From Acidobacteriota bacterium (lineage in GTDB: Bacteria > Acidobacteriota > UBA6911 > RPQK01 > JAJDTT01), in the NCBI GenBank assembly GCA_965263035.1, contig OZ253580.1, forward strand, positions 64,001 to 128,000: DNA of 64,000 nt, read 5' to 3'. Positions within the stretch are counted from its first letter, which is position 1. The number at the start of each line of letters is the position of its first letter. Shown one piece after another: positions 9,533-40,875 of this stretch. A program made the position numbers and the translations under genes. The notes below the pieces were generated by a model. That model was not told where the DNA came from. It did not search any database and saw only the letters and a program-made list of their open reading frames with translations.

Positions 9533-9691
9533 GAGCCTGCGCCACAGAAATTGATCTACTGCGAAAGCGGTAGAATCGGTCCATATTTCCTCGATTTCTC
9601 GGCGAATAGAACAACTATGCACCTCAAAATCGAGAAAATCTGGCCTCGATTCCCCACTTTCTCGCTACGATCATTTCTACCGCGCAGACTC
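9533..9691. mobile_element. 159-bp MITE, copy 1
   Basis: TIR GAGCCTGCGC / GCGCAGACTC, CTAG on both sides; differs from 40497-40655 at 2 positions. Confidence 0.9.
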
Positions 9692-9759
9692 CTAGGAGGG
9701 GCGATTTCCCAGTCGCCCATTCCTCCATTCGCCCGTTCCCCCCTTGTTACGTAGGAGTT

Positions 9760-9810
9760 CGGCGGCTAGAAACCGCCGTTCCTGTTCGGCGGTTGGAAAC
9801 CGCGGCTCCT
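9760..9810 (+). repeat. Tandem pair of REP-like hairpins (family A)
   Basis: CGGCGGCTAGAAACCGCCGTTCC and CGGCGGTTGGAAACCGCGGCTCC. Confidence 0.75.
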
Positions 9811-9832
9811 TTGAAATCAGATTACCACGACG

Positions 9833-11212
9833 TCAGGACGATTCAAATCGGCGGTCGATCCGGTCCCACTGGTAGCCGAGGCCCGTCCCCCGGAGTGTCG
9901 ACGTGCGGATCCTTCCCTGCTCCAGCTTGAAGAAACCAGGGTGGACCGCCCGCTCCGGCTCGCTGCTGGCGGGAAAGAACTGACGGCTGTTGGACTCGAC
10001 GCCGCGAATAGTCTGCAGCCGGCCCGCCAAGCCGGCCGACTGGAGCAGAGCGATGCCCGGATTCGTCAGATCCTGCACCGCGAATGGAACGCCGGCCGCG
10101 GCGGCCCGGGATGCCAGCACCAGCTCGGCCGACTGGCACTTGCAGGTCTTCAAAGCCAGACCGCTGTACCCCAGTTCCAGCGCCAGCTCCAGATCCTCCA
10201 GCGAACTCAGAGCCTCATCCACGATGACGGGCTTGATCTGCCGCAATTCCGTCATGTCCAGCATTCGTTTTCGTAGGTCCCGTTCGCACGGCTGTTCCAC
10301 GTAGAGCAGAGAGTCGAAGGCGGACCGGTTCTCTTCCTTCAACCGGACCAGCAGCTCCACCATGTACTGGGGTGTGTCGCACATCTCGTTCGTGTCAGCC
10401 GTGAGCCATAGTTCATCGATATTCAGGCGTCGTTGCTCGGTACGAGCCAGCCGGTAGACTTCCAGGAGCCGGTTGAGATCCCACTCCAGGTCGGTGCCCA
10501 GCAGTTTGACCTTGAGACACCGGAGGGCCTCGTAACGGATCCATTGGTCCAGGGAAACGGGCAGGCCGTCGTCGGGATCGTCTTCCGCGACTTCGGCTTC
10601 CGAGAGCTTGTCCATTCCCCCCACCAAGTGGAAGGCATCCACCTGTTCCGGCAGGGGATGGAGAAAATCCGCCACGTAGCGTCCCGTATAGGAAGACCCC
10701 AGCCAGCGGGAGAGGTCGTGATCCATGTGCTCAGGGCCGTAGCCCAGGTAGGTGTCGATGCCTGCCGCGTTCCCGAAGGCGTCGTGAATGGCGGCGTCGG
10801 CGGCGGAGGCGCAGATGAGGGCGTTGAGGCGAGGCATCTCCTCGGCGGCGTCCGCGTCCCGGCAGAGGTTGTGTGTCAGGGACTCCAGTTCCGGCTCCAG
10901 TTCCCAGAAGAGGTCAATGGGATGCGCGAAGGTCCGCACCTCCCCCAGACGTCGGCACCAAGCCGTCACCAGCTGGACCATCAGCTCCTCCCGCTGCGGG
11001 TGGTCCACTAGGCTCGAAGGCCAGCCCCAGACGTCGGAGAGAAAGATGGCGCCCCAACCTTCTCCTCTCTGTCCCTGCCGATTCTCCACTAGCACACGGA
11101 CGTGGCAGAGCCAGGCCGAGTCCATGACCACACCGCCGAACTTCAGGGGCGTCCGGGACTGCTCCCGGGTGAAATACGGCTGAATCTCCAGGATCCGAAC
11201 GTCGGTCTCCAT
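9833..11212 (-). CDS. Enolase superfamily (mandelate racemase/muconate lactonizing enzyme-like) protein
   Basis: KVK, D-TNE, EQP and DE metal/catalytic motifs; N-terminal capping domain with GEGWG. Confidence 0.82.
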   Translation of the reverse strand: METDVRILEIQPYFTREQSRTPLKFGGVVMDSAWLCHVRVLVENRQGQRGEGWGAIFLSDVWGWPSSLVDHPQREELMVQLVTAWCRRLGEVRTFAHPIDLFWELEPELESLTHNLCRDADAAEEMPRLNALICASAADAAIHDAFGNAAGIDTYLGYGPEHMDHDLSRWLGSSYTGRYVADFLHPLPEQVDAFHLVGGMDKLSEAEVAEDDPDDGLPVSLDQWIRYEALRCLKVKLLGTDLEWDLNRLLEVYRLARTEQRRLNIDELWLTADTNEMCDTPQYMVELLVRLKEENRSAFDSLLYVEQPCERDLRKRMLDMTELRQIKPVIVDEALSSLEDLELALELGYSGLALKTCKCQSAELVLASRAAAAGVPFAVQDLTNPGIALLQSAGLAGRLQTIRGVESNSRQFFPASSEPERAVHPGFFKLEQGRIRTSTLRGTGLGYQWDRIDRRFESS

Positions 11213-11222
11213 ATCCGATTCC

Positions 11223-12500
11223 CTACCCTTGCAACAGGCTTTCCACCATCGGCACCACTCTGAGGGCCGTCATGCCGGCGATTCCCAACAGCACCGCCGC
11301 TCCCAGAACGACGAAGGCCCGTTCCGGAGTAGAGAACGGACGCTGTGCCATGGCGTCGCGGTCGAAGAAGGCCAGCAACGTCGCCAGCACCCCCAGGGGC
11401 ACTGCCAACAGGGTCAGGGCCTGGGCCAGGGCGAGAGCCCGGATCTCCAACTGGCTCTTGGCGGCAGCACCCGCCGCGGCCGCGGGATCCGCAGGCGCCT
11501 CGGATTGGAGGATGGCGACGGCGGTGGCCAAGCCGATGAGCAGGATGACCGTGGCGAAGAGCTTGGTGGACGAAGAGTTCACCTTCCCGCCCAATCCCAG
11601 CCCGTCGCTGACCAGGACCCCGCCGATCAGGGCGTTGGTCACGAAGCTGGAGAAGGCGGCGGTACCGAATCCGACGCAGAAGATGATGCGAGCATATGCC
11701 CCGAAGACACCCTCCAGTTGCATCGCCATGCCGGCGGCGCTGTCCACCGACCCGCCGGGATACAGCACGGCGGCCGCCGTCATCATGATCACGCAACCAA
11801 TTGCCGTGTAGAGGATGGACGCCAGCACCGTGTCCGTGACGCCGCTGGAAAAGTCCTCCTCCTTCCAGCCCTTGGCCCGGACCAGATAGGCCTGAAAGAA
11901 GGCTGCCACCATCACGAAGGTGGTGGCGACCAGGCCTCCCAACGTGAGCCAGTCGGCGCCTTCCGGAACCCGCGGGATGAACGCCCCCTTCAGCGCGGCT
12001 GACCAGTCCGGTCCGGCCCACAACAGATTGACCAAGAAAGCCAGGATCATGAAGACGAGGAAGAAGGTCATCAACCGCTCCAGCAGCAAATAGATGTTCC
12101 GGAAGCCCAGGAGGAAGACGATGGAAAGCAGTGTGAAGCCCACGGGCCAGACCAGCTTGGGGACGTCAGCCCAGAGCGTGGTCATGGCGGCGGTGACGCC
12201 CAGATTGTTGCCGAACTGGAAGGTGGCGTTCACCGATGCCAGCGAGAGGCCGCAGACCACGGCGAACCAGGGTCCCAGCTTGCGGGAGGCCACGCCCAGG
12301 AAAGTCTCTTGGGAGTAAAGGCCAAAGCGAAGGAAGAGGGCGAGAAACCCCGCCATAAGGGCGCCGGCGAGAATGGCCAGCCAGAGCATGGAGTAGCCGT
12401 AGGCAGCGCCGGTGCGCGACATCAGGGTGACGCTGCCCGGTCCGATGATGCAGGCCCCCACGATGAAGGCGGGTCCGATTCGTTTCAGTCCAACGGCCAT
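11223..12500 (-). CDS. Nramp/MntH-like transporter (APC superfamily)
   Basis: IGPAFIVGACIIGPGSVT, GAAYGYSMLW, FQFGNNLG, LVATT, FSSF; about 11 TM. Confidence 0.82.
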   Translation of the reverse strand: MAVGLKRIGPAFIVGACIIGPGSVTLMSRTGAAYGYSMLWLAILAGALMAGFLALFLRFGLYSQETFLGVASRKLGPWFAVVCGLSLASVNATFQFGNNLGVTAAMTTLWADVPKLVWPVGFTLLSIVFLLGFRNIYLLLERLMTFFLVFMILAFLVNLLWAGPDWSAALKGAFIPRVPEGADWLTLGGLVATTFVMVAAFFQAYLVRAKGWKEEDFSSGVTDTVLASILYTAIGCVIMMTAAAVLYPGGSVDSAAGMAMQLEGVFGAYARIIFCVGFGTAAFSSFVTNALIGGVLVSDGLGLGGKVNSSSTKLFATVILLIGLATAVAILQSEAPADPAAAAGAAAKSQLEIRALALAQALTLLAVPLGVLATLLAFFDRDAMAQRPFSTPERAFVVLGAAVLLGIAGMTALRVVPMVESLLQG

Positions 12501-12552
12501 GATCGATACCTTCTTGCCGTTCTCTCCGGCACCCAGTGTACAGGGCACCGAA

Positions 12553-12573
12553 AGGAGCGGCGACTTCTAGTCG
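12553..12573 (-). repeat. REP-like hairpin family A; first of a tandem pair whose second copy is split by IS110
   Basis: AGGAGCGGCGACTTCTAGTCGC. Confidence 0.7.
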
Positions 12574-13006
12574 CAGAAGAGGAGTATCCATGTTGCAAGT
12601 GGTGGGTGCTAATCGGTGTTTCCATCCCGTGTCGTTAGTACGTGATCTGTCCGGTCCAAGAGGCACAGGGTTAGGAGGAGCGTTCTTCCGCCGGAGGTGA
12701 GGCGGAGATCGAACTGGATCCGCCGGGCGCCGTGCAGGGGGCGATGAGTGGACCGATCAACTGGATCGAGGGGCCTGAGATCGTCGATGTCGGTCCTCCG
12801 GGAGGTCCGGATACGCCCTGGGGAGCGCCGGGTCAAGCCTCCGGCTCCTCCGCTTCGCTGCGCCCCTTCGGGTGACCCGACGCTCCCCAGGGCGTGAAGA
12901 GCTTTCATGGCCGTAAGCAAGCTTCCGGCCAGACTTGACCGGAAGTTCGACAGACGGCCATCAGGGGTCCACACGCTCCCTTTCCTCACGGGGTCTCTCC
13001 GTGGCC

Positions 13007-13954
13007 TCAGAAGGTCGCTCGGGGCGCTACGGGCAACCAGGTGCGGTCCTGCCGGACGAGGGTGTTGGCCAGGACGATAAGCTTGCGCATGACGGCGACG
13101 AGGGCCACCTTGCCGGGCTTGCCGCGCTCGCTCAGCCTCCGGTACACCTCGGCCAAGTCGGGGTTCCAGCGCAGGGCGGCCACCGCCGGCATGTACAGGA
13201 GCCGTCGCGCCCGCGCCCGTCCGCCCCGGATGAAGGCCCGGCCCTGCCAAGCCCCCGACTCGCGCGGAACGGCGGCCAACCCGGCCAGACTGGCGGCGGC
13301 CTTGCCGCTAAGGGCGCCCAGCTCGGGCATCTCGGCCAGCAGACCGGCGGCGGTGGTGGCCGCGATCCCGGGGATGGAGGTGAGGATCTCCAACTTGCGG
13401 GCCCGCGCCTCGTCGGCCGCAATCAGCTGCTGCATTTTGCGGTCGATGGCGCGCAGGTGGCGCTCGAACATGTTGATCTGGATCTGGTTCTGCTGTTTGA
13501 GCAGGGGTTCGCGGAGCTGTCGGCGGCGGTTGAGCGCGGCCGTGCGCTGGCGCATCAGCGCGTCCCGGGACGTCTGCAGATCCTGGAGCCGGCGTTGCGT
13601 TTTGGACGGCACCTGGGTCCGGCGCGGCTCCAGCGTGGCGGCCAGCTGGGCCAGTTTCCGAGCGTCTACGGCGTCGGTCTTGGCGCGGCTCCCGGTCGCC
13701 TCGGCGAAGCGCCGCGCCTGCCAGGGGTTCACCTTGGCCAGCGGCAGCTTCGCTTTGGACAGCGCCTCCTCGAGGTCCCGGTGGTAGGGGCCGGTGGCCT
13801 CGTAGGCGATGCACTCGACCGGAGTTCCGATCCAATCGATCAGCGCCCGGAAGCCGGCCGGGTCATTGTCGAACTGGGCGGAATGGCCGTCGGCCAGCCG
13901 GTGCGCGTCCAGGTGCGCTTTCGAGATGTCGATGCCTACGGTATGCTGTTTCAT
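13007..13954 (-). CDS. IS110 DEDD recombinase/transposase
   Basis: GIDISK, EATG, KTDAVDA, SIPGI, LAGL..RESG, GGR..RRLLYMPA. Confidence 0.95.
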   Translation of the reverse strand: MKQHTVGIDISKAHLDAHRLADGHSAQFDNDPAGFRALIDWIGTPVECIAYEATGPYHRDLEEALSKAKLPLAKVNPWQARRFAEATGSRAKTDAVDARKLAQLAATLEPRRTQVPSKTQRRLQDLQTSRDALMRQRTAALNRRRQLREPLLKQQNQIQINMFERHLRAIDRKMQQLIAADEARARKLEILTSIPGIAATTAAGLLAEMPELGALSGKAAASLAGLAAVPRESGAWQGRAFIRGGRARARRLLYMPAVAALRWNPDLAEVYRRLSERGKPGKVALVAVMRKLIVLANTLVRQDRTWLPVAPRATF

Positions 13955-13959
13955 CTTTC

Positions 13960-14120
13960 CTGTCTCCTGTGCTTGTCATTCGGGCCTTGATGCCCTCGTA
14001 TCCATTCAGGACATCGGGAAAGACGGTGGCCGACCTGACTCCTTTTCGGTTCGCAAAAGTCCGCGGCGGTACGGTCCAGCCACCGCCGTCCGGGTCGCTC
14101 ATGAGCGACCCGGACGGCCC
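13960..14120 (-). ncRNA. IS110 bridge RNA
   Basis: 5' perfect hairpin (14085-14118), then target loop (ACCGCCGC 14063-70; AGGAG 14039-43) and donor loop (ATGGATAC 13998-14005; GACAAG 13972-77) matching the flanks and ends. Confidence 0.82.
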
Positions 14121-14150
14121 CATTTAAACAGACAAGCGGCGGTTTCCTAG

Positions 14151-16227
14151 CCCGAGTTTACTGTGTTCGCGTCAGCATAGCACTGGCCTAGCGCATGGGC
14201 AGACCGATTTCTCAAATTCAAGTTATTGATAAGGAAGAGTTTATCCACCCAGCCCGACCGAGGCCACTGCGCCCGTGACCTCGACTTTTGTATGACCTAA
14301 TTCCTGTTGGACTGTTCTAGGTTAATCCCGGAAGTATCTATCTGATTTCGCAGGATAAATTTTTGATTTCAGGCGAGGACCTTTGACAATCGACCTCTCG
14401 ATACGCTAGTGTATGACCTAATATATGGCCAGCATCGTCAAGAAGATCATCCGCGGCCGCCCCTACTACTACGCCCGCGTCTGCAAACGCGTCCACGGCA
14501 AGCCCAAGATCGTTTCCCAGACCTATCTCGGCCGCGCCGACAAAATCATCGAGAAGCTTCGGGCCGCCCCCGTGCTGGCCCAACCACTGGAGGCGGTCGT
14601 GCGCGAATTCGGCGCCTCCACCGCCCTGCTCGCCCTCGCCCGCCGCTTGCAGCTCGTCGAGCACATCGACCGCCATGTCCCCAAGCGCGGCTCCGGCCCC
14701 TCCGTCGGCACCTACCTGCTCGCCGCCGTCCTCAACCGCTGCCTCGCCCCCGGCTCCAAGGCCAGCCTCGCCCGCTGGTTCGACTCCACCGCCCTCGGCC
14801 GCCTCCTCCCCCTGCGCTCCAGCCAGCTCACCAGCCAGCGCTTCTGGGACCACATGCACCGCGTCCCCGTCTCAGCCATCCCCGCCATCGAACGCGACAT
14901 CGTGACCGCCATGACCCGTGAGTTCGGCCTCGACCTGCGCCAAGTGCTGTTTGACGCCACCAACGTCTTCACCTACATCGATTCTTTCAACGAGCGCTCC
15001 CAGCTGGCCCAGCGCGGCCACAGCAAGGAGGGCCGCAGGTCGTTGCGCATCATCGGCGTGGCGCTGCTGGTCACGGCCGACTTCCGCCTGCCCCTGCTGC
15101 ATCGCACCTATCCCGGCAACCGGCCCGACGCGCCGCTGTTCCAGAGCCTCTCCGCCGACTTGGCCCGGCGCTACCATGAGATCGCGGCCGGCGCCGAGAC
15201 GGTCACCCTGGTCTTCGACAAGGGCAACAACTCGCGCGAGAACCTGGACTGGGTCGAGCGCGGCCCCTTCCACTTCATCGGCTCGCTGGTGCCGACCCAA
15301 CACCCGGACCTGCTGGCCGTGCCGGCGGACCAGTTGCGCTCGCTGGAGGCCGACGGGTTGCCCGGCGTGCACGCCTACCGCACCCACTACGAAGTGTTCG
15401 GCGTCGAGCGCACGGTGCTGGTGATTTGGAACCAAGCGCTGTTCGACGCCCAGTGCCGGACGCTGCTGCGTGAGATCGCGAAGCGGCGCCAGCACCTGCG
15501 CGCGCTGCAGCGGCAGCTTCGCCGCTGGCGCGACGGCAAGATCCGTGGGGGGCGCAAGCCGGGCGTGGCCACCACGCGCAAGAAGGTTGACGGCTGGCTG
15601 CGGGCCCGGCACATGCGGGACCTGTTCGACGTCCAGGTGCGTGAGGAGGACGGCTTGCCGAAGGTGAATTACCGCTTCCAGCGGCGCGCCTGGGAGCAGC
15701 TGCAGCGCAGGTTGCTGGGCAAGACCCTGCTGTTCACCGACCAAGCGGGCTGGAGCGACGCCGAGTTGGTGCGCGGCTACCGCGCCCAGCATCATGTCGA
15801 GAGCGCCTTCCGGCAACTCAAGGACAGCAACTGCATCGCGATCCGGCCGCAATACCACTGGACGGATCAGAAGATCGCGGTGCATGTGTTCTGCTGCGTG
15901 CTGGCGCTGATGCTGTGCGGACTGCTGCAGCGGGAACTGAGCCGCCACGGCGTGTCGGGCTCGATCCCCGCACTGCTCGACGCACTGGGTGGGATCCGCG
16001 AAGTCGACGTACTCTATCCCGCACAGGAGGAGGGCGGCAATCCCGAACTCAGGACGACGCTCTCGCAGATGACGGACGAACAGCGCAGGATGTACGAAAT
16101 CCTAGACCTACAAAGCCAGACGATCTAACCTCTGATGCGGCTCCGTAGGTCATACGGGAGGGCTGACCTATGTCTCTGCAAAAAAAGAACTTATCTTTAT
16201 CTTTTTGTCCAACACGGTAAACTCGGG
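14151..16227 (+). mobile_element. IS1634-family insertion sequence
   Basis: 17-bp TIR CCCGAGTTTACTGTGTT / AACACGGTAAACTCGGG; CTAG on both sides. Confidence 0.88.
14425..16128 (+). CDS. IS1634-family DDE transposase
   Basis: YYYARVCKRVHGKPK, FDATN, RGHSKEGR, VFDKGNNS, YRAQHHVESAFRQLK, IRPQYHWTD. Confidence 0.92.
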   Translation: MASIVKKIIRGRPYYYARVCKRVHGKPKIVSQTYLGRADKIIEKLRAAPVLAQPLEAVVREFGASTALLALARRLQLVEHIDRHVPKRGSGPSVGTYLLAAVLNRCLAPGSKASLARWFDSTALGRLLPLRSSQLTSQRFWDHMHRVPVSAIPAIERDIVTAMTREFGLDLRQVLFDATNVFTYIDSFNERSQLAQRGHSKEGRRSLRIIGVALLVTADFRLPLLHRTYPGNRPDAPLFQSLSADLARRYHEIAAGAETVTLVFDKGNNSRENLDWVERGPFHFIGSLVPTQHPDLLAVPADQLRSLEADGLPGVHAYRTHYEVFGVERTVLVIWNQALFDAQCRTLLREIAKRRQHLRALQRQLRRWRDGKIRGGRKPGVATTRKKVDGWLRARHMRDLFDVQVREEDGLPKVNYRFQRRAWEQLQRRLLGKTLLFTDQAGWSDAELVRGYRAQHHVESAFRQLKDSNCIAIRPQYHWTDQKIAVHVFCCVLALMLCGLLQRELSRHGVSGSIPALLDALGGIREVDVLYPAQEEGGNPELRTTLSQMTDEQRRMYEILDLQSQTI

Positions 16228-16299
16228 CTAGAGCAAAGCCGTGTCTTTGATTCAGGGCCATGGTGGACGGCACAAGAGAGAAAATCACGCATTGAAACA

Positions 16300-16315
16300 C
16301 GTACCTTTTGGTACG
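16300..16315. promoter_or_regulatory. Possible HicB operator palindrome
   Basis: CGTACC-TTTT-GGTACG next to TTGAAA, just upstream of hicA. Confidence 0.4.
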
Positions 16316-16325
16316 GAGATAGACT

Positions 16326-16532
16326 ATGACTGGAGTCGAGTTCATCCGCCGTGCGAGTCGCTATGCGAAACGGACCGGTCAGGATTTCCGATTGGAGCCC
16401 AGCCGCGGCAAGGGCAGCCACGCACGTTTATGGATCGGCCGGCGATTTACCACAGTAAAGCGGAGTGAGTTGCAGCGGGGGACCTTTTTTGGGATGTTGA
16501 AACAGTTGAACATCAGCACGGAGGACTTCTGA
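16326..16532 (+). CDS. hicA: HicA-family toxin
   Basis: GKGSH motif, 68 aa, upstream of HicB. Confidence 0.8.
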   Translation: MTGVEFIRRASRYAKRTGQDFRLEPSRGKGSHARLWIGRRFTTVKRSELQRGTFFGMLKQLNISTEDF

Positions 16533-16534
16533 CG

Positions 16535-16963
16535 ATGCGATACGTTTACCCCTGCGTCCTGGCACCGGAACAGGAGGGCGGATTCTCTGTCACGTTTCCA
16601 GACGTTCCCGAGGCGCTGACTTGTGGAAACGACAGGGTTGAAGCCTTGGCGATGGCCGAGGACGCACTCGCGACAGCATTGGCTGGATACGTTCAGGAAC
16701 GTTGGGACATCCCAATTCCGGCCATACCTACCAGTGGTCAAGAACTGATCGCCGTTCCGCCTGTCGTTGCCTCCAAGCTGGCCCTCTACAGATGCATGCG
16801 CAAGCAGGGCATCACCAAGGTCGCTCTTGCCAAGCGCTTGGGCCTGAGCGAAGGCGCTGTCCGAAAACTTCTGAAACTGGATCATCGGTCGCATATCAAC
16901 CAGGTCGAGAGAGCGCTTCGGGTGGTAGGGCGCTACTTGGTCGTCGAGGACAGAGTCGCCTGA
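16535..16963 (+). CDS. hicB: HicB-family antitoxin with C-terminal HTH
   Basis: GGFSVTFPDVPEALTCG..EALAMAEDAL; LAKRLGLSEGAVRKL. Confidence 0.88.
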   Translation: MRYVYPCVLAPEQEGGFSVTFPDVPEALTCGNDRVEALAMAEDALATALAGYVQERWDIPIPAIPTSGQELIAVPPVVASKLALYRCMRKQGITKVALAKRLGLSEGAVRKLLKLDHRSHINQVERALRVVGRYLVVEDRVA

Positions 16964-17127
16964 AGTCGAGTTGAAGTCCCGCTTCGGTTCTCGGCCGAGC
17001 CGCAAGCTCAGAGGAAAACCCGTAGACCGTCTCACGTATCGGATGTGAACAGCCAACACCGGTGTGGTACCTTTCGGTCTTCCCGGACGAGAATGTCAAC
17101 CCTTTCAACCCCAGCCGAGAGGAGCCC

Positions 17128-18693: not shown

Positions 18694-18737
18694 ATCGTGA
18701 TGAAGAGGGGGACTGCAAGTCCCCCCTCCCAGGGTGC

Positions 18738-19625: not shown

Positions 19626-19692
19626 TGGGGTCCTTTCGTTGTTCGAAGAGTGTTCGGTGACGATCGGCGCGGCGGGCTGCACCGCTGGAGAT

Positions 19693-21123: not shown

Positions 21124-21134
21124 GATTCGAACCT

Positions 21135-24452: not shown

Positions 24453-24694
24453 CGAGTCCTCCCCGGACGTGAGGGTATACGCTACCTGATTTTAACATTG
24501 AGAGTCTGAGAAATTCAGCCGCCAAGCCAAGTCCGGACTTTCCCCACAGGAGGGGGGACATCCCTGTCCCCCATTGGCGACTTTCTTGTCGCCTGTTCTT
24601 CTAAGTTCCCATGCGATTCGGTGGCCGGAAAGTGTAGAGTGGGGACTCCGTCCCCCCTAGACCCCCCTAATCGGCGGCAAGAAAGCCGCCGCTC

Positions 24695-25324
24695 GTGCGC
24701 CCGACATGGGCTGTATCTAAGGGATGAAAGATCCCAAGGGAGGTGATGGGACCAACCCTAGCCGAACCGCAAGGCGTAGCCGCGAGGTGAAGCTGAAGGA
24801 AGCGGAAGGCAAACCCACGACCGCAGGAACACGAACCGGCAGTGAGGCCGGGTGCGGGCGGTGATCTGGCGAGCAACAGCGAAACCCGAACCCCATCCAG
24901 ACGTACCAGGTAGAGCCGGGCAGCCCGGGGGGAAAGATGCAGCACCTTACTCGGGGAGATCTCAAGGGTGAGAGCCTTTGAGAAGTCAGCAGAGGTCATA
25001 GTAGCGAAGAAGCCGGATAATGCCGGTGGAGCGAAGGACCGAAGGAGTCGGACTGGCCCTATGGTGGACTCGTCAGCGGGATCGCAACTACCTCCGGAAA
25101 CGGGGCGGGGGGAGGCCCCTCGGACCCGGCACGGAAGGCCCAAGGGTGGAACCCGTCAAGCCGGAAGGGCGGAGATCAAGTCCCAGCGGCGGCGAAAACC
25201 GGAAAGAAAGGCCCTTTACGAGGCTCGAAAGAGCCTCGAGTGACTCCAACCGCCGGATACTGAAAACGGTACGTCCGGTGGTGTGGGAGGGTGCAGGGGC
25301 GCAATCCCCTGCACTCGACCCGAT
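24695..25324 (+). ncRNA. ORF-less group IIC intron, 630 nt
   Basis: 5' GTGCGCCCG; GAGAAGTCAGCAGAGGTCATAGTA (DII/III); DIV stem GGAGTC/GACTCC; short DV AACCGCCGGATAC..GTACGTCCGGTGGT with CGC triad; DVI ending ACCCGAT; inserted just after a hairpin. Confidence 0.9.
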
Positions 25325-25336
25325 CTTTAGAGACCT

Positions 25337-26016
25337 TTTATTATCAATGGCAAAAAATGGGGTCACAATTTGCTATTGATAGCAAAATTTGCATGAAGGA
25401 AGAGTGGGGGACAAGAATGTCCCCCACTTCTGAGAGGTCCTTTTCTGGAAAAGGAGGGGACCGTATTAGGAGGGGACTGTCCCCACTTTACGTGTCCCGT
25501 GTCCATCCATCCGACCGCCGCGCGAGCGGTCAGCGCCCAGGAATCCGGAGCCGGAAGGAGGGAGGCATGAGGGGACCAGGTCCGGCCGCGGGAGCCCCCG
25601 TGGCGGTCGCTCCGCTCCCTTCACGGGGGCTCCCGCGATGTGTGCAATTTTCAGTGGCCATTGACATGTCCTTTATTACGGACTGTCCCCAATTTAGAAG
25701 GAGCACCCACTTTAGGAGGAGTAAGAGCGTATGTAGGAGGGGACTGTCCCTACCTCTATGCGCCCGGGAGGGGACAGTCTGGATCGCGACGAAGCAGTCC
25801 CATTCCCGTGCTCCGGCCTAACCGGAGCGACGTAGGGGCACCCCTTGTGGGTGCCCGCTGTCGTCCCTTACTGAGCGGCCCGGGGACGGCGACCACACGT
25901 AAGGAGGGGACTGTCCCCACTTTAGTAGAGAGTTGGGGGTTAAAAACGCTCGCTCCTAGGGACTATTTTTGCTATCAATAGCAAAAACTCGTTCATTTTT
26001 CGCCATTAATAGCAAA
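25337..26016. repeat. Segment bounded by ~50-bp imperfect inverted repeats, containing GGGGACTGTCCCC repeats and a GTAG-type REP
   Basis: TTGCTATTGATAGCAAAA (25370) vs TTTTGCTATCAATAGCAAAA (25967); AGGAGGGGACTGTCCC at ~25468, 25735, 25902; GTAGGGGCACCCCTTGTGGGTGCCC at 25832. Confidence 0.65.
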
Positions 26017-26209
26017 TTCTGGCGAACACGCTGAGGTTGGACCGGCAGTGGTGGCTTCCCTGCCACCGAATTTTCAATGGAGCTTGGGGGAATGGGCGAC
26101 TGGAAAGTCGCCCCTACTGAGAGGGCCCTTCCTGGAAAAGCGTCTCCGAATCGGGTAAGAATGAAGCCGCTTCCCGGGGACGCGCGCCGTCTCCCCCTCC
26201 GGACTCTCT

Positions 26210-27967: not shown

Positions 27968-27985
27968 TGGGTACTATGGGCGTTC

Positions 27986-28357: not shown

Positions 28358-28365
28358 GCTGAGCG

Positions 28366-30926: not shown

Positions 30927-31174
30927 AGCCGAAGTCTGAGAAGAATTCCAGAATTTCGCAGGAGAGTATTGTGGTTCAAAGACACCAGCGATGCGCACGA
31001 CGGACGCGGTGCGGAGGCTTGCGGGCACTTTGGGCTCGAATGACTCGCCGGGTCGCCTAGTGCGTGACGAAAGAGATTTTATCTTCCGTCACTTTCTGAC
31101 CGTATGGCGACATCTCCCGCGTACAAGCTGCGCTCGGCGAATCCGCTTTGCATGAAAACTTTCAACGTTTCCAG

Positions 31175-31281
31175 GAGGCTGTCCGAGAACTCGAAAAATC
31201 ACAGTCCAAAAAAAATATCCCCTTATAATTCAATAACTTAAAGATATCGATTTGGAAAAAACCGAATTCTCGGACAGCCTC
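31175..31281. mobile_element. 107-bp AT-rich MITE
   Basis: Perfect 15-bp TIR GAGGCTGTCCGAGAA / TTCTCGGACAGCCTC; flanks CCAG / CTAG. Confidence 0.75.
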
Positions 31282-31350
31282 CTAGTGTAGTGTCCCGTTA
31301 GTTCGTGTATAATAATAGGCGGTTCCTCATTCAGAAAGGAGACTGCCTAT

Positions 31351-33115: not shown

Positions 33116-33117
33116 CT

Positions 33118-34206: not shown

Positions 34207-34628
34207 TACTCCTTAAACGTTACTCTTCTTATTCCCCTCCTACGGTACCTGCGGGCACGGATGCCAGGGGTCAGGCTCCCGCACTGGTGCGAGCCCTTCC
34301 AGCTAACGCATCCAACCTGGCCGAGGTGCGGAAGCGCTTCTTCAGGGAGTACGACCGCTCCGCCAAGAAAATGAACGATCTACGCAAAGAGTGGTTTCGG
34401 TACCAACACCCCCGCTCACACACGAAACGCGAGAGGCGGCCCAAAGTGAAGGTGCGAAGGTGGAACCCGCCATTTTTTGGCGGATTTCGGGGAGCGAGCG
34501 TTGTATCAGGTGAAGAAACCCTATGAGAGTTGAGCGAATCAGCCACGTAGATCAGGACTGCACTTTGGATCCGGCAATGCGAAGTTGGGCGGAGGCTGAA
34601 ATGGAGAGATCGGTCCTGCCACCCAACG

Positions 34629-34832
34629 ATGCCTAAAGTTCGAGACGCGATCCGTCTCCTGAAACGGGATGGTTGGCTATGGGTACGAACTCGGGGCAGC
34701 CATCGCCACTGCAAACATCCCGAAAAGCTTGGAACCGTTACGATTGCGGGGAGAATGAGCAACGACTTGGCCCCGGGCACTTGGAATAGTATTTTGAAGC
34801 AGGCTGGACTCGATCAGGGGGAATCGTCATGA
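34629..34832 (+). CDS. hicA: HicA-family toxin
   Basis: DGW..RTRGSHRHCKHP..GTWNSILKQAG. Confidence 0.88.
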   Translation: MPKVRDAIRLLKRDGWLWVRTRGSHRHCKHPEKLGTVTIAGRMSNDLAPGTWNSILKQAGLDQGESS

Positions 34833-35080
34833 AGTACACCGTTGTCATCGAGAAATCCGACAACGGTTACTCAGCATATCTGCCGGACATGCCGGGCTGT
34901 GTAGCTGCTGGAGACACTCTTGCCGAAACGGCAGATCTGATTCGTAAAGGCATCGTCTACCACTTGGAAATGCTCCGAGACAATGGCGACCCGACTCCCG
35001 AACCCCGGGCCATGACCCTCCAGGTCACGGTAGAGGAAGCGACACCGGACCTCCGCCGGTCGCAAGCCAGAAATCGGTGA
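34829..35080 (+). CDS. hicB: Short HicB-family antitoxin
   Basis: YSAYLPDMPGCVAAGDT; ATGA overlap with hicA. Confidence 0.88.
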   Translation: MKYTVVIEKSDNGYSAYLPDMPGCVAAGDTLAETADLIRKGIVYHLEMLRDNGDPTPEPRAMTLQVTVEEATPDLRRSQARNR

Positions 35081-35397
35081 TGCGACGTTCATCCCTTCTG
35101 AGACAGGGATCAGAGTGGGCGAGACGGTGATGCGTACCTGGAGCGAACTGAAGCGTGAACATTCTCAGGGCCGGGGTTGTTGCCCTGGGTGCCGAAACGT
35201 GGGCCGATAGGCCGAGCGTGGCACCGGAATTGTAGTCGTCAAGTAATGTCTATAAGCCCCCTTTGTTTAGACGGCCATCTAATCGGTCGCGAGAATGATG
35301 AAGGCTGCGACTTCATCATCCAGTTGTTCGAAATGAATCCATTCGAATCCGACGAGATGTGGCCACCTCCACTTCTGTCAAGAATTCAGGAGGACGC

Positions 35398-35601
35398 ATG
35401 AGGTCAAACATCGCAGAAATTCAGCAGGCGATACTAGAACTTCCTGAATCCAATTTCGTTCGATTGAGACATTGGTTCAACGAGTTGGACTGGGCAGAAT
35501 GGGACCGGGAAATCGAAACGGATTCAGGTTTAGGCAAGTTGGATTTCTTAGTTACGGAAGCCAAGGAAGCGAAAGAGCGGGGCAAGCTTGAAGCACTCTA
35601 G
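35398..35601 (+). CDS. Small antitoxin-like protein, partner apparently truncated
   Basis: GGAGGA RBS; WDREIETDSGLGKLDFL pattern; followed by an MHRTTP stub. Confidence 0.55.
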   Translation: MRSNIAEIQQAILELPESNFVRLRHWFNELDWAEWDREIETDSGLGKLDFLVTEAKEAKERGKLEAL

Positions 35602-35863
35602 ATGCATCGGACAACCCCCGGAAGCACTCCAGCCGGCGGTTCCGGGTCGGCGATGAAGAGGGGGACAAGACTGTCCCCCCTCCCAGGGTGCCCCCATGTT
35701 TTTCTATGGAGAATTTATCCATAAGGGGAAACCACCCTGCCGAACCGAATTTCAAACTTCGATTCACTCGCCACGCCATGAGGACACGGTTCCACCGTTT
35801 GACAGTCGTCTGAGTTGGATGCGAGACTTTAGTAAGACTCGGTAATACTCAGCTAGGGGAAAC

Positions 35864-36121
35864 ATGGGAAGAACCAGCAAGACCATCACATTTTCACTGC
35901 CTCCTGAGTTGGCGGACAGGGTGGAAGAAATCTTGAAACAGGAGGGCCGCACCAGGAGCGCACTTCTGCGAACGGCATTGATCCGGTACATCGAGGAGTG
36001 TGAGTGGAGGCAGTTGCTCCAGTATGGAGAACGGCGGACGAGAGAGAAGGGCATCGGACCGGAGGATGTGGGGCTCCTGGTTGAGGAGTATCGGGCCGAG
36101 GCAGACGCTTCTCACTCATGA
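35864..36121 (+). CDS. Ribbon-helix-helix (CopG) antitoxin
   Basis: KTITFSLPPELA..RTRSALLRTAL. Confidence 0.8.
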   Translation: MGRTSKTITFSLPPELADRVEEILKQEGRTRSALLRTALIRYIEECEWRQLLQYGERRTREKGIGPEDVGLLVEEYRAEADASHS

Positions 36122-36522
36122 GGGTCGTTCTGGACACAAACGTCATCGTCTCCGGCCTTAACTTTCCTGGAAACGAGCGGCTGGTTCTGAATCTGGCCCG
36201 CCGGGGGCGCTTTACACTGTATCTCTCCCCGTTTGTGCTGCTTGAGGTTCGGGGTGTATTGGTGTGCAAGTTTGGTTGGAAGGTGGGGATTTCCGACCGG
36301 GCCATTCGAATGCTGCGCGTCTCGGCAACCATCATTGAACCCCAACAGTTGCCGGACGTGATCGAGAATAACGAAGCCGACAACCGGATCCTTGCGTGCG
36401 CGATGGAGTCCGCTGCCGACTATCTGGTAACGGGCGACCGGCGGCATCTGCTGCCCCTCGGAGAACACCTTGGCACCAAGATCGTCAACGCTCCCCGTTT
36501 TCTGTCTGCCCTCGGGATGTAG
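36118..36522 (+). CDS. PIN-domain toxin
   Basis: VVLDTNVIVS, DNRILACA, YLVTGDRRHLL. Confidence 0.88.
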   Translation: MRVVLDTNVIVSGLNFPGNERLVLNLARRGRFTLYLSPFVLLEVRGVLVCKFGWKVGISDRAIRMLRVSATIIEPQQLPDVIENNEADNRILACAMESAADYLVTGDRRHLLPLGEHLGTKIVNAPRFLSALGM

Positions 36523-36614
36523 TCTCCTCTGGTCCGGCTTCAGAGAATTGTGGTTGCGGGTTAAGGATCCCGGCTCCGGAATCGGGATCGGCGGGCACCC
36601 GCCAATCGAGTAGT

Positions 36615-37352
36615 ATGACGCGCATGCACACCCAGAAACCGCAACACCGGATCGACGTCCTGGAACATGGCCGGGACCGGGACGGGAACGAGCATTCGAC
36701 CGACCGGCGTCTCTTCATGCAACTTCACGTCTTCAGCGGCTGCCGCGACACCGGGCCGCTGATCCAACAGGTCGAGGCCAGCGGGCTGAAGCCGGCCGTG
36801 CTCTATCTGGACCTGAATCATCCGCGAGGAGTCGGGCTCCTGACCATGTCCGAGGACCCGGCAGATTTCGTCACCCTGGTGCGACCGTTCCTGAACGGTG
36901 GGTCCTTCGCCTCCCTCACGCTGCGGCCCGAGTTCACCATGCTGGGAAGGAGCTACGCCAGCGGTTACGAACCCGACGTCGAGGACTGGCTCATCGAACG
37001 TCCCCAGCGAACGGCCCTGAATCCGGATTGGCCCTGGGCCGTCTGGTACCCACTGCGCCGCACCGGCGCCTTCAACGCCCAACCGCAGAACGTGCAGCAG
37101 AGCATTCTGAGGGAACACGGCGGCGTCGGCCGGCTCTACGGACAGCAGGATCTGGCCCACGACATCCGGCTGGCCTGCCACGGAATCGACACCAACGACA
37201 ACGAGTTCGTCATCGGCCTCGTGGGCAAGGATCTCCATCCGCTCTCCCACCTGGTCCAGAGGATGCGTCGGACCCGGCAGACCTCCGAGTTCATGCAGCA
37301 GATGGGACCGTTCTTCGTGGGACGGACCCTGTGGCAGAGCCCGCTGGTCTAA
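36615..37352 (+). CDS. Chlorite dismutase/HemQ-like heme protein
   Basis: WYPLRR, EHG, DIRLACHGID.NDNEFVIGL, PFFVGR. Confidence 0.82.
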   Translation: MTRMHTQKPQHRIDVLEHGRDRDGNEHSTDRRLFMQLHVFSGCRDTGPLIQQVEASGLKPAVLYLDLNHPRGVGLLTMSEDPADFVTLVRPFLNGGSFASLTLRPEFTMLGRSYASGYEPDVEDWLIERPQRTALNPDWPWAVWYPLRRTGAFNAQPQNVQQSILREHGGVGRLYGQQDLAHDIRLACHGIDTNDNEFVIGLVGKDLHPLSHLVQRMRRTRQTSEFMQQMGPFFVGRTLWQSPLV

Positions 37353-37477
37353 GAGAACCAACCGCGACCACACCCCGGTACGCCAGCTCGCAGAAACAGG
37401 TAAGGGCGATTCGGGAGGCGTGGCTATGCGTTCCGGCGAATTCCATGCATTGATGCCTCGTTTGTCACTTGGGAGTG

Positions 37478-37530
37478 CGGCGGCAAGAAAGTCGCCGCTC
37501 CCATTCGGCGGCAAGAAAGCCGCCGCTCCC
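37478..37530 (+). repeat. Tandem pair of intact REP-like hairpins (family A)
   Basis: CGGCGGCAAGAAAGTCGCCGCTCCC and CGGCGGCAAGAAAGCCGCCGCTCCC. Confidence 0.8.
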
Positions 37531-37570
37531 ATTGGCATTTGTTATCCTGATTGGAAAAAGGGGGAAACCC

Positions 37571-38179
37571 ATGAGTTTCTTCAACCGGTACTTCTTCGTT
37601 GGTCTGGCTGCAGGTGTGGGGCTCACGGTCGCACTGATCCTGGTCGCCGGCCTTTTGATCACGCTCCAGGTCCGGCAGCAGATGGACGACCTGGGCGATC
37701 TGGGCGGAGGCCTGCCACCCCCGCCATTTCCCCAGCAGGAATCGCTTACCGACGTGGAGTGGAAGCTCCAGAGTCTGGACGGGGAGGAGACTTCGCTGTC
37801 CGCGTTCGAGGGGAAGGTGCTCTTCGTCAATCTCTGGGCCACGTGGTGCGGCCCGTGCGTGGTCGAAATGCCCGGCATTCAGCGGCTCTACGAACAGTTT
37901 CCCCAAGAGGACATGGCGTTCCTGCTGGTCTCCGACGAACCGCCGGACGTGGTCGAGACGTTCGTCCAGGAGAAGGGGTGGGAACTACCCTTGTACGTCT
38001 CGGACGACGAGAAACCCTCCGCCTTCGAGAGCCGGGGGATCCCGGCGACCTTCATACTGGACCGGATGGGCCGGATCGTGTTCCGGCACGTGGGGAGCGC
38101 CCGCTGGGACGACGAATCGTCCGTCCGCTTTTTGAACGAACTGCTGGAGAAGGGGGCCATGGAAGGAGACAGCACATGA
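37571..38179 (+). CDS. TlpA-family thiol-disulfide oxidoreductase
   Basis: N-terminal TM; NLWATWCGPC, IPATFILD. Confidence 0.92.
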   Translation: MSFFNRYFFVGLAAGVGLTVALILVAGLLITLQVRQQMDDLGDLGGGLPPPPFPQQESLTDVEWKLQSLDGEETSLSAFEGKVLFVNLWATWCGPCVVEMPGIQRLYEQFPQEDMAFLLVSDEPPDVVETFVQEKGWELPLYVSDDEKPSAFESRGIPATFILDRMGRIVFRHVGSARWDDESSVRFLNELLEKGAMEGDST

Positions 38180-39189
38180 GCGGGGAACGACAGGGACCGC
38201 GCGTCCTGGTCACGGACTATGCCTGGCCGACCCTCGACCCGGAGAAGGAGATCCTGGGGCGGATCGGAGCCTCCCTGATGGTGGCTTCTACGGGCGAAGA
38301 GGACGAGCTGGTGGAGATGGCGGCCCAAGCCGACGCCATCCTGACCTGCTGGAAGGCGGTGTCGACGCGGACGATCCGGGAGGCCCCGCGCTGCCAGATC
38401 ATCTCCCGCTACGGGATCGGCCTGGACAACATCGACATCCCGTTCGCCACCGAACAGGGCGTCATCGTGGCCAACGTTCCCGCCTATTGCCTGGAAGAGG
38501 TCACCGACCAGGCCCTGGCGTTGCTTCTGGCCTCGGCCCGCAAGGTCGTCCTCTTCGACCGGGAGGCCAAGGCAGGCCGCTATGGAATGGCGCCGGGCCG
38601 GCCCATCTTCCGGATCCGGGGACGGACTCTGGGCATCGTGGGATTCGGAAAGATCGGCCGCACCCTGGGCCGCAAGGCCCGGGCCTTGGGCCTCAAGGTC
38701 GCCGCCTTCGACCCCTATCTCGACGATTCGTCCGTGCGGGAGCACGACGCGGAGCCGATGGATCTGGATCGCTTAATGGAGGTCAGCGACTACATTTCCA
38801 TCCACGTTCCTCTCAACGCCGAGACCCATCACCTCTTCAGCCGGGAGGCCTTTCGGCGGATGCGGCCCGAGGCCTTCCTCATCAACACTTCCAGGGGGGC
38901 CGTGGTGGACACGGCCGCGCTGGTGGAGGCGCTCGATGCGGGCGAGATCGCGGGCGCGGGATTGGACGTGCTTCCCCAGGAGCCGCCGGAGCCGGGCGAT
39001 CCGGTGGTGCTCCACCCCAAGATCATCATCACTCCCCACGCCTCCTTCTACTCCCAGGAGTCGCTCCTGGAACTGCAAACCACGGCAGCTCAGCAAGTTG
39101 CCGATGTTCTGTCAGGCAGGGTCCCGGACTGGGTCGTGAATCCCGACGTCCTCCGGCGGCCCAATCTTCGTGCCTCCATCGATCGCTGA
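38176..39189 (+). CDS. D-2-hydroxyacid dehydrogenase (CtBP/SerA-like)
   Basis: RYGIGLDNID, GIVGFGKIG, INTSRG, AGLDVLPQEP, TPHASFY. Confidence 0.92.
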   Translation: MSGERQGPRVLVTDYAWPTLDPEKEILGRIGASLMVASTGEEDELVEMAAQADAILTCWKAVSTRTIREAPRCQIISRYGIGLDNIDIPFATEQGVIVANVPAYCLEEVTDQALALLLASARKVVLFDREAKAGRYGMAPGRPIFRIRGRTLGIVGFGKIGRTLGRKARALGLKVAAFDPYLDDSSVREHDAEPMDLDRLMEVSDYISIHVPLNAETHHLFSREAFRRMRPEAFLINTSRGAVVDTAALVEALDAGEIAGAGLDVLPQEPPEPGDPVVLHPKIIITPHASFYSQESLLELQTTAAQQVADVLSGRVPDWVVNPDVLRRPNLRASIDR

Positions 39190-39210
39190 AACAGGAGGAG
39201 TTCAAGCACC

Positions 39211-40473
39211 ATGGAGAGAACGATCTGGGACGTGGCGCGCCAGCAATTCTTCGAAGCGGCAGAGCTGACCGATCTGGACGACGATCTGAAGGAGGTCCTG
39301 AGCCAGTGCAACCGCGACCTGACCGTCCGGTTTCCGGTCTGCATGGACGACGGTTCCATCCGGGTCTTCGAAGGCTACCGGGTTCAGCACAATCAGGCCC
39401 GCGGACCCACCAAGGGTGGAATTCGTTACTCGCCTGAGGTGACCCTCGACGAGGTGAGAGCGCTGGCCATGTGGATGACGTGGAAGACGGCCGTGGTGCG
39501 GATTCCATACGGTGGGGCCAAGGGCGGGGTGATTTGCGACCCGCAAAGCATGAGCCTGGGCGAGCTGGAGAACCTGACCCGCCGGTACGCCTCCGAGATC
39601 TCCATCATCGTGGGCCGCGAGAAGGACATTCCGGCTCCCGACGTCAACACCAATCCCCAGATCATGGCCTGGTTCATGGACACGCTGTCCATGCGCAGCG
39701 GTTTTTCGGACGCTGGCGTGGTCACGGGCAAACCTATCGAGATCGGCGGCTCTCTGGGGCGTCTGGACGCCACCTCGCGGGGATGCCTCTACGTCGCCGA
39801 AGAAGCCCTCAAGGAGCGCGGGGAGACGCTGGAGGGCAAGACCGTTGCCATTCAGGGTTTCGGAAATGCCGGCAGCTTCGCCGCTTCTCTCTTCGCCCAG
39901 GCCGGAGCCCGGGTCGTGGCCGTCTGCGACTCCCGCGGAGGCGTCTACAACTCGGCCGGGCTGGATATGGACCGGCTGCTCCGGCTCAAGAAGGAAAATA
40001 CGACGGTGGCCGAATATCCGGACGGGGACCGGGTGGATCCGAAGCAACTCCTGGAACGGCCCTGCGACATCCTGATTCCGGCGGCCGTCGAGGACCAGAT
40101 CACCGAGGCCAATGCCGATCGGATTCAGGCCGGCATCGTGGTGGAAGCCGCCAACGGCCCCACCACACCGGAGGCGGACCGGATTCTGAACGAACGGGGG
40201 GTGACGGTGCTCCCCGACGTGCTGGCCAACGCCGGTGGCGTGACGGTGTCGTACTTCGAATGGGTTCAGGACCTGGGCTCCTTCTTCTGGGACGAGGACC
40301 GGGTCTACCGGGAGCTGAAGCGGGTCATGACGGCCGCGTACCGCGACGTTTCGGCCGAACTGGGCCGGCTCCAGAGTCTCCATGGCCCGCAGATCAACCA
40401 TCGACAGGCCGCGTATGTTCTGGCCATCCAGCGGGTCGCCCGGGCCACCCAGCTTCGGGGCATCTATCCCTGA
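39211..40473 (+). CDS. gdhA: Glu/Leu/Phe/Val dehydrogenase (glutamate dehydrogenase)
   Basis: RGPTKGGIRY, GGAKGG, DIPAPD, QGFGNAG, EAANGP, NAGGVTVSYFEWVQ. Confidence 0.9.
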   Translation: MERTIWDVARQQFFEAAELTDLDDDLKEVLSQCNRDLTVRFPVCMDDGSIRVFEGYRVQHNQARGPTKGGIRYSPEVTLDEVRALAMWMTWKTAVVRIPYGGAKGGVICDPQSMSLGELENLTRRYASEISIIVGREKDIPAPDVNTNPQIMAWFMDTLSMRSGFSDAGVVTGKPIEIGGSLGRLDATSRGCLYVAEEALKERGETLEGKTVAIQGFGNAGSFAASLFAQAGARVVAVCDSRGGVYNSAGLDMDRLLRLKKENTTVAEYPDGDRVDPKQLLERPCDILIPAAVEDQITEANADRIQAGIVVEAANGPTTPEADRILNERGVTVLPDVLANAGGVTVSYFEWVQDLGSFFWDEDRVYRELKRVMTAAYRDVSAELGRLQSLHGPQINHRQAAYVLAIQRVARATQLRGIYP

Positions 40474-40496
40474 AGGCGAGGAGCGGCGGCTTCTAG

Positions 40497-40655
40497 GAGC
40501 CTGCGCCGCAGAAATTGATCTACTGCGAAAGCGGTAGAATCGGTCCATATTTCCTCGATTTCTCGGCGAATAGAACAACTATGCACCTCCAAATCGAGAA
40601 AATCTGGCCTCGATTCCCCACTTTCTCGCTACGATCATTTCTACCGCGCAGACTC
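40497..40655. mobile_element. 159-bp MITE, copy 2, inserted in the loop of a family-A REP
   Basis: CTAG TSD; excision restores GGAGCGGCGGCTTCTAGCCGCCGAA. Confidence 0.9.
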
Positions 40656-40875
40656 CTAGCCGCCGAACTCGGGTGGAGCAATGAACATAGAGGGAACGGG
40701 CGATTGGGAACTCGCCCCTCCGGGCGAGTGAAAAGGGTGAATCACAGCGGCTCTTTCGGAGGAGTGGGTTAAGATAGCGGCCTTGCGGGAAAAGCCCCGG
40801 CGGGCGTATTCTTGATCGTAATTCGTCCACCGGGATGTGGCGAATCCGCGGGGCTTCCCAGCGCGGGCACATGAG

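Follow-up and report, generated by a model that had tools for sequence, protein, structure and literature searches.

How do four unrelated mobile elements come to lie in copies of one short hairpin repeat, and do all of them choose it? The locus that raises this question is a 64,000-nt stretch of DNA (the window; positions 64,001-128,000 of one 6.198-Mb contig, genome G000). In it, an IS110-family insertion sequence (IS), a group II intron, a miniature inverted-repeat transposable element (MITE) and an IS1634-family IS all interrupt copies of a repeat resembling repetitive extragenic palindromic (REP) sequences. Several PSCyt1/PSCyt2/PSD1 and DUF1501 genes are present, which we read as a probable planctomycete trait. 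A first-pass annotation of the window had proposed that one REP family is the shared landing site of all four elements. We examined this proposal by counting copies, reading insertion sites, following guide/target covariation, assigning proteins to families and comparing empty sites in relatives. With a probability of about 85%, two of the elements, the IS110 element and the intron, would be programmed by RNA to the REP tail, and the MITE and IS1634 would be incidental hits at the tetranucleotide CTAG.

The intact and interrupted repeat copies reported by the first-pass annotation are present where it had placed them, all sites having been read directly. The REP units of the window are:

9759-9782 and 9786-9809, plus strand: two tandem intact REP units, with 3 and 1 mismatches to consensus B
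~12553-12583, minus strand: degenerate REP unit adjoining the IS110-hit REP, GGAGCGGCGACTTCTAGTCGC..., with more than 5 mismatches and outside the census
14137-14150, minus strand: left REP half up to and including the loop CTAG, from the unit that both IS110 and IS1634 entered
24671-24694, plus strand: REP unit that acts as 5' exon for the intron (a hairpin and then intron-binding site 1 (IBS1), GCTC), ...GCCGCCGCTC
37477-37501 and 37505-37529, plus strand: two tandem intact REP units
40480-40666, minus strand: REP unit with the 159-bp MITE inserted at its loop CTAG (MITE 40497-40655; CTAG 40493-40496 and 40656-40659)

Intact units with at most 5 mismatches start at 9759, 9786, 24671, 37477 and 37505, with no others in the window, where a strict form of the repeat pattern matches three times against 0.22 expected. 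To count units genome-wide we used an ungapped Hamming scan allowing at most 5 mismatches to the consensus, which misses copies with indels or more mismatches. The scan gave 469 units, covering 0.19% of the genome, versus 4 in a simulated second-order Markov genome. The consensus takes two forms, TCGGCGGCAAGAAAGCCGCCGCTCC and TCGGCGGTTGGAAACCGCCGCTCC; the exact type A core ...GGCGGCAAGAAAGCCGCC... occurs 69 times and the exact type B core ...GGCGGTTGGAAACCGCC... 55 times. Because the flanks of the cores are conserved, the units are about 25 nt long and end in GCTCC. They fall into 318 clusters, 100 of which hold at least two units, and inverted doublets are always in the '-+' arrangement (19 cases, with 0 '+-'). 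At up to 2 mismatches, all 8 other genomes of the same genus have the family, with 9-141 copies each, and it is absent from all 22 genomes of other genera in the same family and order. The repeat is a genuine, genus-specific REP family. Unlike the GTAG/CGTC-tagged REP superfamilies, as described in the accessible part of Di Nocera 2013 (PMC3733652), it has neither a GTAG nor a CGTC tag at the palindrome end; the consensus ends TCGG... and ...GCTCC.

The IS110 element lies in the tail of one such unit. Its features, including the guide segments we assign to a predicted bridge RNA, are:

12585-14136, minus strand: IS110-family element, 1552 bp with one copy of the CT core counted, in the REP tail ACCGCCG-CT-CC
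13007-13954, minus strand: IS110 DEDD transposase gene, 315 aa (Pfam and NCBIfam)
13955-14134, minus strand: predicted bridge RNA in the IS110 left end (from guide matches, covariation and fold)
14070-14063, minus strand: putative left target guide (LTG), ACCGCCGC
14043-14039, minus strand: putative right target guide (RTG), AGGAG
14005-13998, minus strand: putative left donor guide (LDG), ATGGATAC
13977-13972, minus strand: putative right donor guide (RDG), GACAAG

The transposase matches NCBIfam NF033542 (208 bits, cut-off 140) and has the domains DEDD_Tnp_IS110 (PF01548, 81 bits) and Transposase_20 (PF02371, 68 bits). The window junctions read ...GGAG, then 12585-14136, then CGGCGGTTTCCTAG (14137-14150). 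BLAST found 12 two-ended copies in G000, plus fragments; the fragments at 5835261 and 4205114 are outside the 12, and 5835261 is used solely in the count of ten given below. The element lacks terminal inverted repeats, and all 12 copies have the CT core at both junctions, in sites reading ...CG-CT-CC.... Nine of the 12 are in REP tails at ...ACCGCCG-CT-CC..., which, given how little of the genome REPs cover, has P ~6e-23 for random bases. The remaining three are at GTCACCGACG-CT-CCCTA, within the end of a 1779-bp IS1182-family element.

The 5' untranslated left end of the element is 182 nt long and holds all four guide segments. ACCGCCGC has the sequence of the left target's top strand together with the first core base, and the RTG, AGGAG or GGGAG, is antisense to CTCC(T/C). 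On the donor side, the LDG is identical to the right-end terminus plus C, and the RDG is antisense to CT+TGTC at the start of the left end. Only 1 of 20,000 shuffles of this region contains both the target and the donor guide 8-mers. The predicted RNA folds with z = -4.66 (0 of 200 shuffles fold as well), and the predicted fold puts the target guides on either side of a loop above a long closing stem, the placement described for IS621 in the accessible part of PMC11208160. An Rfam search across the element found no bridge-RNA family, only two chance miRNA-like matches. We also considered the long hairpin in the right end (12812-12896) as an IS1111-type guide and rejected it, since a variant form occurs with either target and it is the left end that contains the guides. 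No IS110 circle junction was seen in public sequencing runs, which consisted of contigs and could not have revealed one.

Guide and target change together. The guide ACCGCCGC goes with the target ACCGCCG|CT in nine G000 copies and in two copies of the relative G007 (L024 and L032), and ACCGACGC goes with ACCGACG|CT in the three other G000 copies. In the relatives, GTCGCCGC is found with GTCGCCG|CT (one copy in G007, L007; two in G004, L008 and L017), GACGCCGC with GACGCCG|CT (one copy in G003, L009) and CACGCCGC with CACGCCG|CT (two copies in G001, L010 and L018). One further copy of the GTCGCCGC group, L016, has the target GCCGCCG, which would mean a U·G pair. The targets in the relatives are the local REP variants. 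The LDG equals the right-end terminus in four of six relative loci; the guide region of L009 is divergent (GGAATGGAGAC), and L024 lacks the right end in the sequence. Relatives of the element in G006 (67% identity) were left out of the covariation, their boundary being uncertain: their guide, TGTGTATGC, matches the apparent target ...CCCGGTATG|CT partly, and the three loci have common upstream sequence.

The sequence ACCGCCGCT occurs 207 times in the genome, 81 of them in REPs, and the 11-mer ACCGCCGCTCC 91 times, of which 68 (75%) are in REPs. A target that is 75% REP-borne accounts for nine of ten IS110 insertions, and sequence alone explains most of the REP specificity. As for the idea, found in the accessible part of a 2026 ISPpu10 preprint, that the REP hairpin also gates IS110 through its structure, the evidence points neither way. 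The sub-lineage with guide ACCGACGC, at genome positions 653,130, 1,125,869 and 3,695,501 (L078), is nested in the ends of IS1182-family elements and appears to be a one-base retargeting from the REP to another mobile element. Guide/target covariation thus argues that the IS110 element is RNA-guided to the REP tail in vivo. The left end of this IS110-group element would encode a bridge RNA that pairs with the 3' stem and tail of the REP (...ACCGCCG-CT-CC), the GGAG guide pairing with top-strand CTCC. The donor guides ATGGATAC and GACAAG would match the element's own ends, and the CT core would be the place of recombination, which is also the case in IS621.

That bridge or seek RNAs direct IS621 and ISPpu9/10 to REPs is already established, according to the accessible parts of PMC11208160, PMC11187229, PMC12288879 and the ISPpu10 preprint. 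The element described here resembles IS621, ISPpu9, ISPpu10 and ISPa11, as presented in those parts, in its DEDD transposase with Transposase_20, the absence of terminal inverted repeats and the CT core at both junctions (PMC11208160, PMC1525189). Like them it has a left-end non-coding RNA in which the 5'-side 8-nt guides equal the top strand and the shorter 3'-side guides are antisense, and like them it has a REP as target (PMC11208160, PMC1525189, PMC12288879, 2026 ISPpu10 preprint). It differs in host phylum and REP family, and in that its natural guide variants follow REP stem variants across one genus.

The intron lies in the same part of another REP:

24695-25324, plus strand: group II intron without an open reading frame (ORF), class C features, 630 nt (GTGCG...CCGAT) (Rfam)
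24871-24874, plus strand: putative exon-binding site 1 (EBS1), GAGC (from covariation)
25248-25324, plus strand: domains 5 and 6 (D5-D6) (RF00029)

Domains D1-D4 match RF02001 (76 bits) and RF01998 (47 bits), both over cut-off. RF00029 scores 39 bits for D5-D6 against a cut-off of 40, and its match ends at 25324, which fixes the 3' boundary of the intron; the next base is C and the exon junction CGCTC|C. G000 has 24 copies: 19 ORF-less copies of 630 nt, mutually 95-100% identical, two of 1848 nt and three interrupted ORF-less ones. The two 1848-nt copies (91% identical over the common RNA) each contain an open 497-codon frame; the encoded protein combines RVT_1 with GIIM and lacks an endonuclease domain. 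Its best relatives in the PDB are the GsI-IIC reverse transcriptase (RT; 451 bits) and 7uim (346 bits), with LtrA at 124 bits. The interrupted copies are at 3,067,626-3,070,028 (L005), 3,923,177-3,925,593 and 5,180,456-5,185,639, and one of the three interrupting insertions carries an rve-type (IS3-like) transposase gene. A 51-nt fragment of the intron lies just upstream of the window, at 56,917-56,967.

A hairpin followed by CGCTC precedes all 24 introns of G000. In 22 of them the hairpin is a REP (at most 4 mismatches) and in the other two it is unrelated. A hairpin is also upstream of all 13 introns in the relatives, where the exon ends in CCTC rather than GCTC in G001, G003 and G008; there the targets are hairpins of the GGGGAC...GTCCCC-CCTC type. 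When 12 introns were aligned (4 with GCTC exons, 8 with CCTC exons), a single column separated the two groups, position 180, C versus G. This column is part of GAGC/GAGG, which is complementary to the last four exon bases, and this covariation identifies EBS1 and a 4-bp pairing. In the window, the sequence downstream of the intron (25325-26076) is rich in GGGGAC(N)GTCCCC and TTGCTATTGATAGCAA-type palindromes.

By GC skew, the origin is at about 2.9 Mb and the terminus at about 5.85 Mb. Twenty of the 24 introns are in the leading-strand sense, which means insertion into the lagging-strand template, versus 193 of the 469 REPs (P = 2.8e-5). Through the covariation of EBS1 with the exon, the intron too appears to be RNA-guided to the REP tail. 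It would reverse-splice one base downstream of the IS110 point, using a 4-bp EBS1 (GAGC)-IBS1 pairing to recognize any stem-loop that GCTC follows, and preferring the lagging-strand template. The ORF-less 630-nt form, a class C derivative, is presumably mobilized in trans by the RT of its two 1848-nt sisters, and both it and the IS110 element may be active at present. That the IS110 and intron insertion points are 1 nt apart in the REP tail, as the first-pass annotation had seen, is borne out.

Class C introns are described, in the accessible parts of PMC1702495 and PMC7306698, as inserting after stem-loops with a short EBS1-IBS1 pairing. The intron resembles class C members such as B.h.I1 and GsI-IIC in its site a few nucleotides after a stem-loop with a 4-bp EBS1-IBS1 (PMC1702495). 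Other likenesses are an RT without an endonuclease domain that is nearest to the GsI-IIC RT and an AGGAA motif in the intron sequence. It differs in that the stem-loops used are REPs, not terminators with U-runs, and in that the dominant form is ORF-less (19 intact and three interrupted copies) versus two protein-coding copies. In the open literature we found no paper on a IIC intron family almost wholly borne by REPs.

Do the MITE and IS1634 also choose REPs? The first-pass annotation had all four elements using the REP specifically as a common safe harbour and competing for it. Within the window this has some appeal, as three REPs hold four elements and one of them holds two. The window MITE is flanked by GGAGCGGCGGCTTCTAG (40480-40496) and CTAGCCGCCGA (40656-40666), with CTAG duplicated, and its removal restores a REP that has 3 mismatches. 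Genome-wide, this 159-bp element with inverted repeats has 163 full-length copies (of 187 BLAST rows, 24 partial ones were left out). CTAG/CTAG is the most frequent flank pair, with 59 of the 163, and most others are one base off. Just two of the 163 sites are inside a REP and two more adjoin one. CTAG itself is rare, with 2024 occurrences against about 7043 expected (~29%), and a large share of these are duplications flanking MITE, IS1634 and IS1182 elements. Thirteen CTAG sites are in REPs and 14 adjoin REPs (27 of 2024), so that CTAG targeting alone predicts about 1.3-2.6 MITE hits at REPs.

Another MITE copy in the window (9533-9691) is at a CTAG adjoining a REP-like hairpin (GGAGGGGCGATTTCCCAGTCGCCC). 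A search of the genome with the 20-nt end of the MITE found no autonomous partner. A looser search found a 1779-bp IS1182-family IS (L086; NF033551, 423 bits) that has only the 8-base terminal GGAGCCTG and the CTAG flanks in common with the MITE. A 109-bp element at 31174-31282, with inverted GGAGGCTGTCCGAGAA ends, resembles a miniature of the IS1182-family element.

The fourth element adjoins the left half of the REP that IS110 entered:

14151-16227, plus strand: IS1634-family IS (transposase 14425-16128; inverted repeats CCCGAGTTTAC...)

Its transposase scores 283 bits against NF033559 (cut-off 100), and its CTAG duplication (14147-14150 and 16228-16231) is in the loop of that REP. The genome has six copies, three identical and three at 88%, all with inverted repeats and a 4-bp CTAG duplication, and just one of the six is in a REP loop. 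The MITE shows no REP preference, and both it and IS1634 hit REPs through CTAG. These DDE-type elements insert at the palindrome CTAG and duplicate it, reaching REPs only where the loop or tail has that sequence. As the duplication recreates the target, pile-ups follow, such as MITE-IS1634-IS1182 at 2.235-2.239 Mb.

The genome-wide insertion census, which the first-pass annotation had itself named as the refuting test, therefore removes the MITE (2 of 163, with 2 adjoining) and IS1634 (1 of 6) from the shared landing site and leaves IS110 (9 of 12) and the intron (22 of 24) in it. The proposed competition is not supported either. IS110 occupies nine REPs and the intron 22, 31 in all; 68 intact REPs keep ACCGCCGCTCC and 271 of the 469 keep the GCTC tail, free for one or the other, and competition between the two is unlikely. 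A REP-specific harbour contested by all four elements is accordingly very improbable. The idea of convergence on a safe harbour was, moreover, already in print in 2006, when REPs were described as hot spots and harmless landing places for several elements.

A second alternative, to which we give a similarly small chance, is that IS110 and the intron insert widely without programmed targeting and, under purifying selection, survive only in neutral REPs. REPs are intergenic and presumably neutral, and the accessible part of Tobes & Pareja (PMC1525189) treats them as safe sites. Against this, the insertion point is the same to the base in every copy, guide and target covary in five variants for IS110 and one for the intron, and the intron is also found after two non-REP hairpins that have GCTC alone in common with the REPs.

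The flanks of the window IS1634 show what became of the interrupted REP. The first-pass annotation placed this IS correctly, at the CTAG of the REP that IS110 had hit, but the sequence to its right (CTAGAGCAAAGCC) is not the missing REP half. That half (CTAGCCGCCGAACTCCC) is at genome position 5,521,5xx, to the right of an identical IS1634 copy (5,521,587-5,523,663, minus strand). In all five complete relatives, the block left of the window IS1634 (with enolase-like and Nramp genes) is next to the one that in G000 lies left of the 5.52-Mb copy, inverted and at a distance of 80-177 bp, and the block right of the window IS1634 abuts the block right of the 5.52-Mb copy. The complementary halves and the synteny together indicate that a segment of about 754 kb spanning the terminus was inverted in G000 via the two IS1634 copies. 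Synteny thus confirms the window IS1634 as one end of an IS-mediated inversion, which moved the other REP half away. The orthologous junctions in all five relatives are uninterrupted REP-like hairpins, that is, empty sites for IS110 and IS1634. To the right of IS1634 is a gene pair (16326-16960) with a HicB-like antitoxin (29.5 bits, over cut-off); the 68-aa ORF upstream of it has a weak HicA match (17.5 bits versus a cut-off of 27).

That the REP-like flanks are carried or made by the elements themselves is the least probable explanation, for although the IS110 right end has a long hairpin with REP-tail-like arms (GGGGAGCG.../...CGCTCCCC), the 469 REPs far exceed the elements in number, the five relatives hold their uninterrupted hairpins without the elements, and the flanking REP subtypes vary among copies.

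The first-pass annotation had also suggested looking for a REP-associated tyrosine transposase (RAYT) flanked by the repeat, and a RAYT-like gene so flanked is present. The genome search gave two Y1_Tnp matches, with PF01797 scoring above cut-off. One gene (2482816-2483529) has its frame of 238 codons intact and contains an HUH motif; a stop or frameshift breaks the other (3477742-3478419). Among NCBIfam models, both genes match REP_Tyr_transpos (NF047646) best, at 73.6 and 76.5 bits with a cut-off of 80, and REP units are on both sides of both genes. At the second locus (L001, 3,477,716-3,478,477) both flanks are a GGGGG-stem REP variant, TCGGGGGTTRAAAACCCCCGCTCC, which also serves two intron copies. 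Homologues with 62-90% identity are found in all eight other genus members. An IS110 copy lies in a REP directly upstream of the intact RAYT-like gene (2,482,816-2,485,078; L002/L066), and in G007 an IS110 copy likewise adjoins a RAYT homologue. The REP family would be maintained together with this RAYT-type tyrosine transposase. As in REP/RAYT (REPIN) systems, a short palindrome is present in hundreds of copies, both in tandem and as inverted doublets, the repeat borders the gene for the putative HUH-Y1 transposase and it is genus-specific. Differences are the missing GTAG or CGTC tag and RAYT scores slightly under the NCBIfam cut-off.

Several observations weigh against two RNA-guided elements targeting a RAYT-maintained REP. 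Of the two bases of the CT core, the left target and left donor guides cover the first alone, whereas the IS621 guides span both. Three G000 copies (4765113, 2494774, 5835261) have GCAG and not GGAG at the RTG without a matching change in the target, which makes that assignment weaker. The three IS1182-borne copies may partly represent composite spread and not separate IS110 insertions; as one of the three has IS1182 ends that deviate at several bases, there were probably two events or more. Four of the 24 introns are in the opposite replication orientation, and both RAYT-like scores fall just below the NCBIfam cut-off.

Insertion of several unrelated elements into the REPs of one genome has a precedent. 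According to the accessible part of Tobes & Pareja 2006 (PMC1525189), IS3, IS110, IS4, IS256 and IS5 elements are found in REPs, which they regard as harmless landing points, and a table there lists a Pseudomonas putida group II intron with two of its nine copies in REPs. Our genome is like theirs in having several unrelated elements in REPs, a pattern they proposed to reflect harmless sites, and differs in that the mechanism is resolved for each element: two would be RNA-guided and two reach REPs via CTAG. Such elements have received little attention in Planctomycetota, the host phylum, and in the open literature we found no paper on these elements in planctomycetes. The case is a well-resolved instance of known mechanisms, not a new kind of system. 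It is also a caution against relying on a local pattern such as four elements in one repeat, as a rare tetranucleotide accounts for two of them.

The locus offers natural evidence, with internal controls, that two very different elements choose their targets by RNA guidance; in both, changes in the guide are matched by compensatory ones in the target, within one and the same 11-bp stretch of the REP. The natural guide variants and the hairpin-plus-4-bp rule are possible test cases for the specificity of bridge RNAs and IIC introns. Tentatively, and with the odds rather against it, one may go further and regard the RAYT-renewed REPs as self-replenishing targets that two RNA-guided parasites track by single-nucleotide guide changes, a layered co-evolution amounting to hyperparasitism of REPINs. 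If so, the IS110 left target guides would be following the species-specific REP stem in five genomes, and one C-to-A change would have moved an IS110 lineage onto the IS1182 end. The C/G switch in EBS1 would likewise shift the intron between GCTC-tailed REPs and CCTC-tailed hairpins. The REP tail could then itself be under selection to escape or tolerate both elements.

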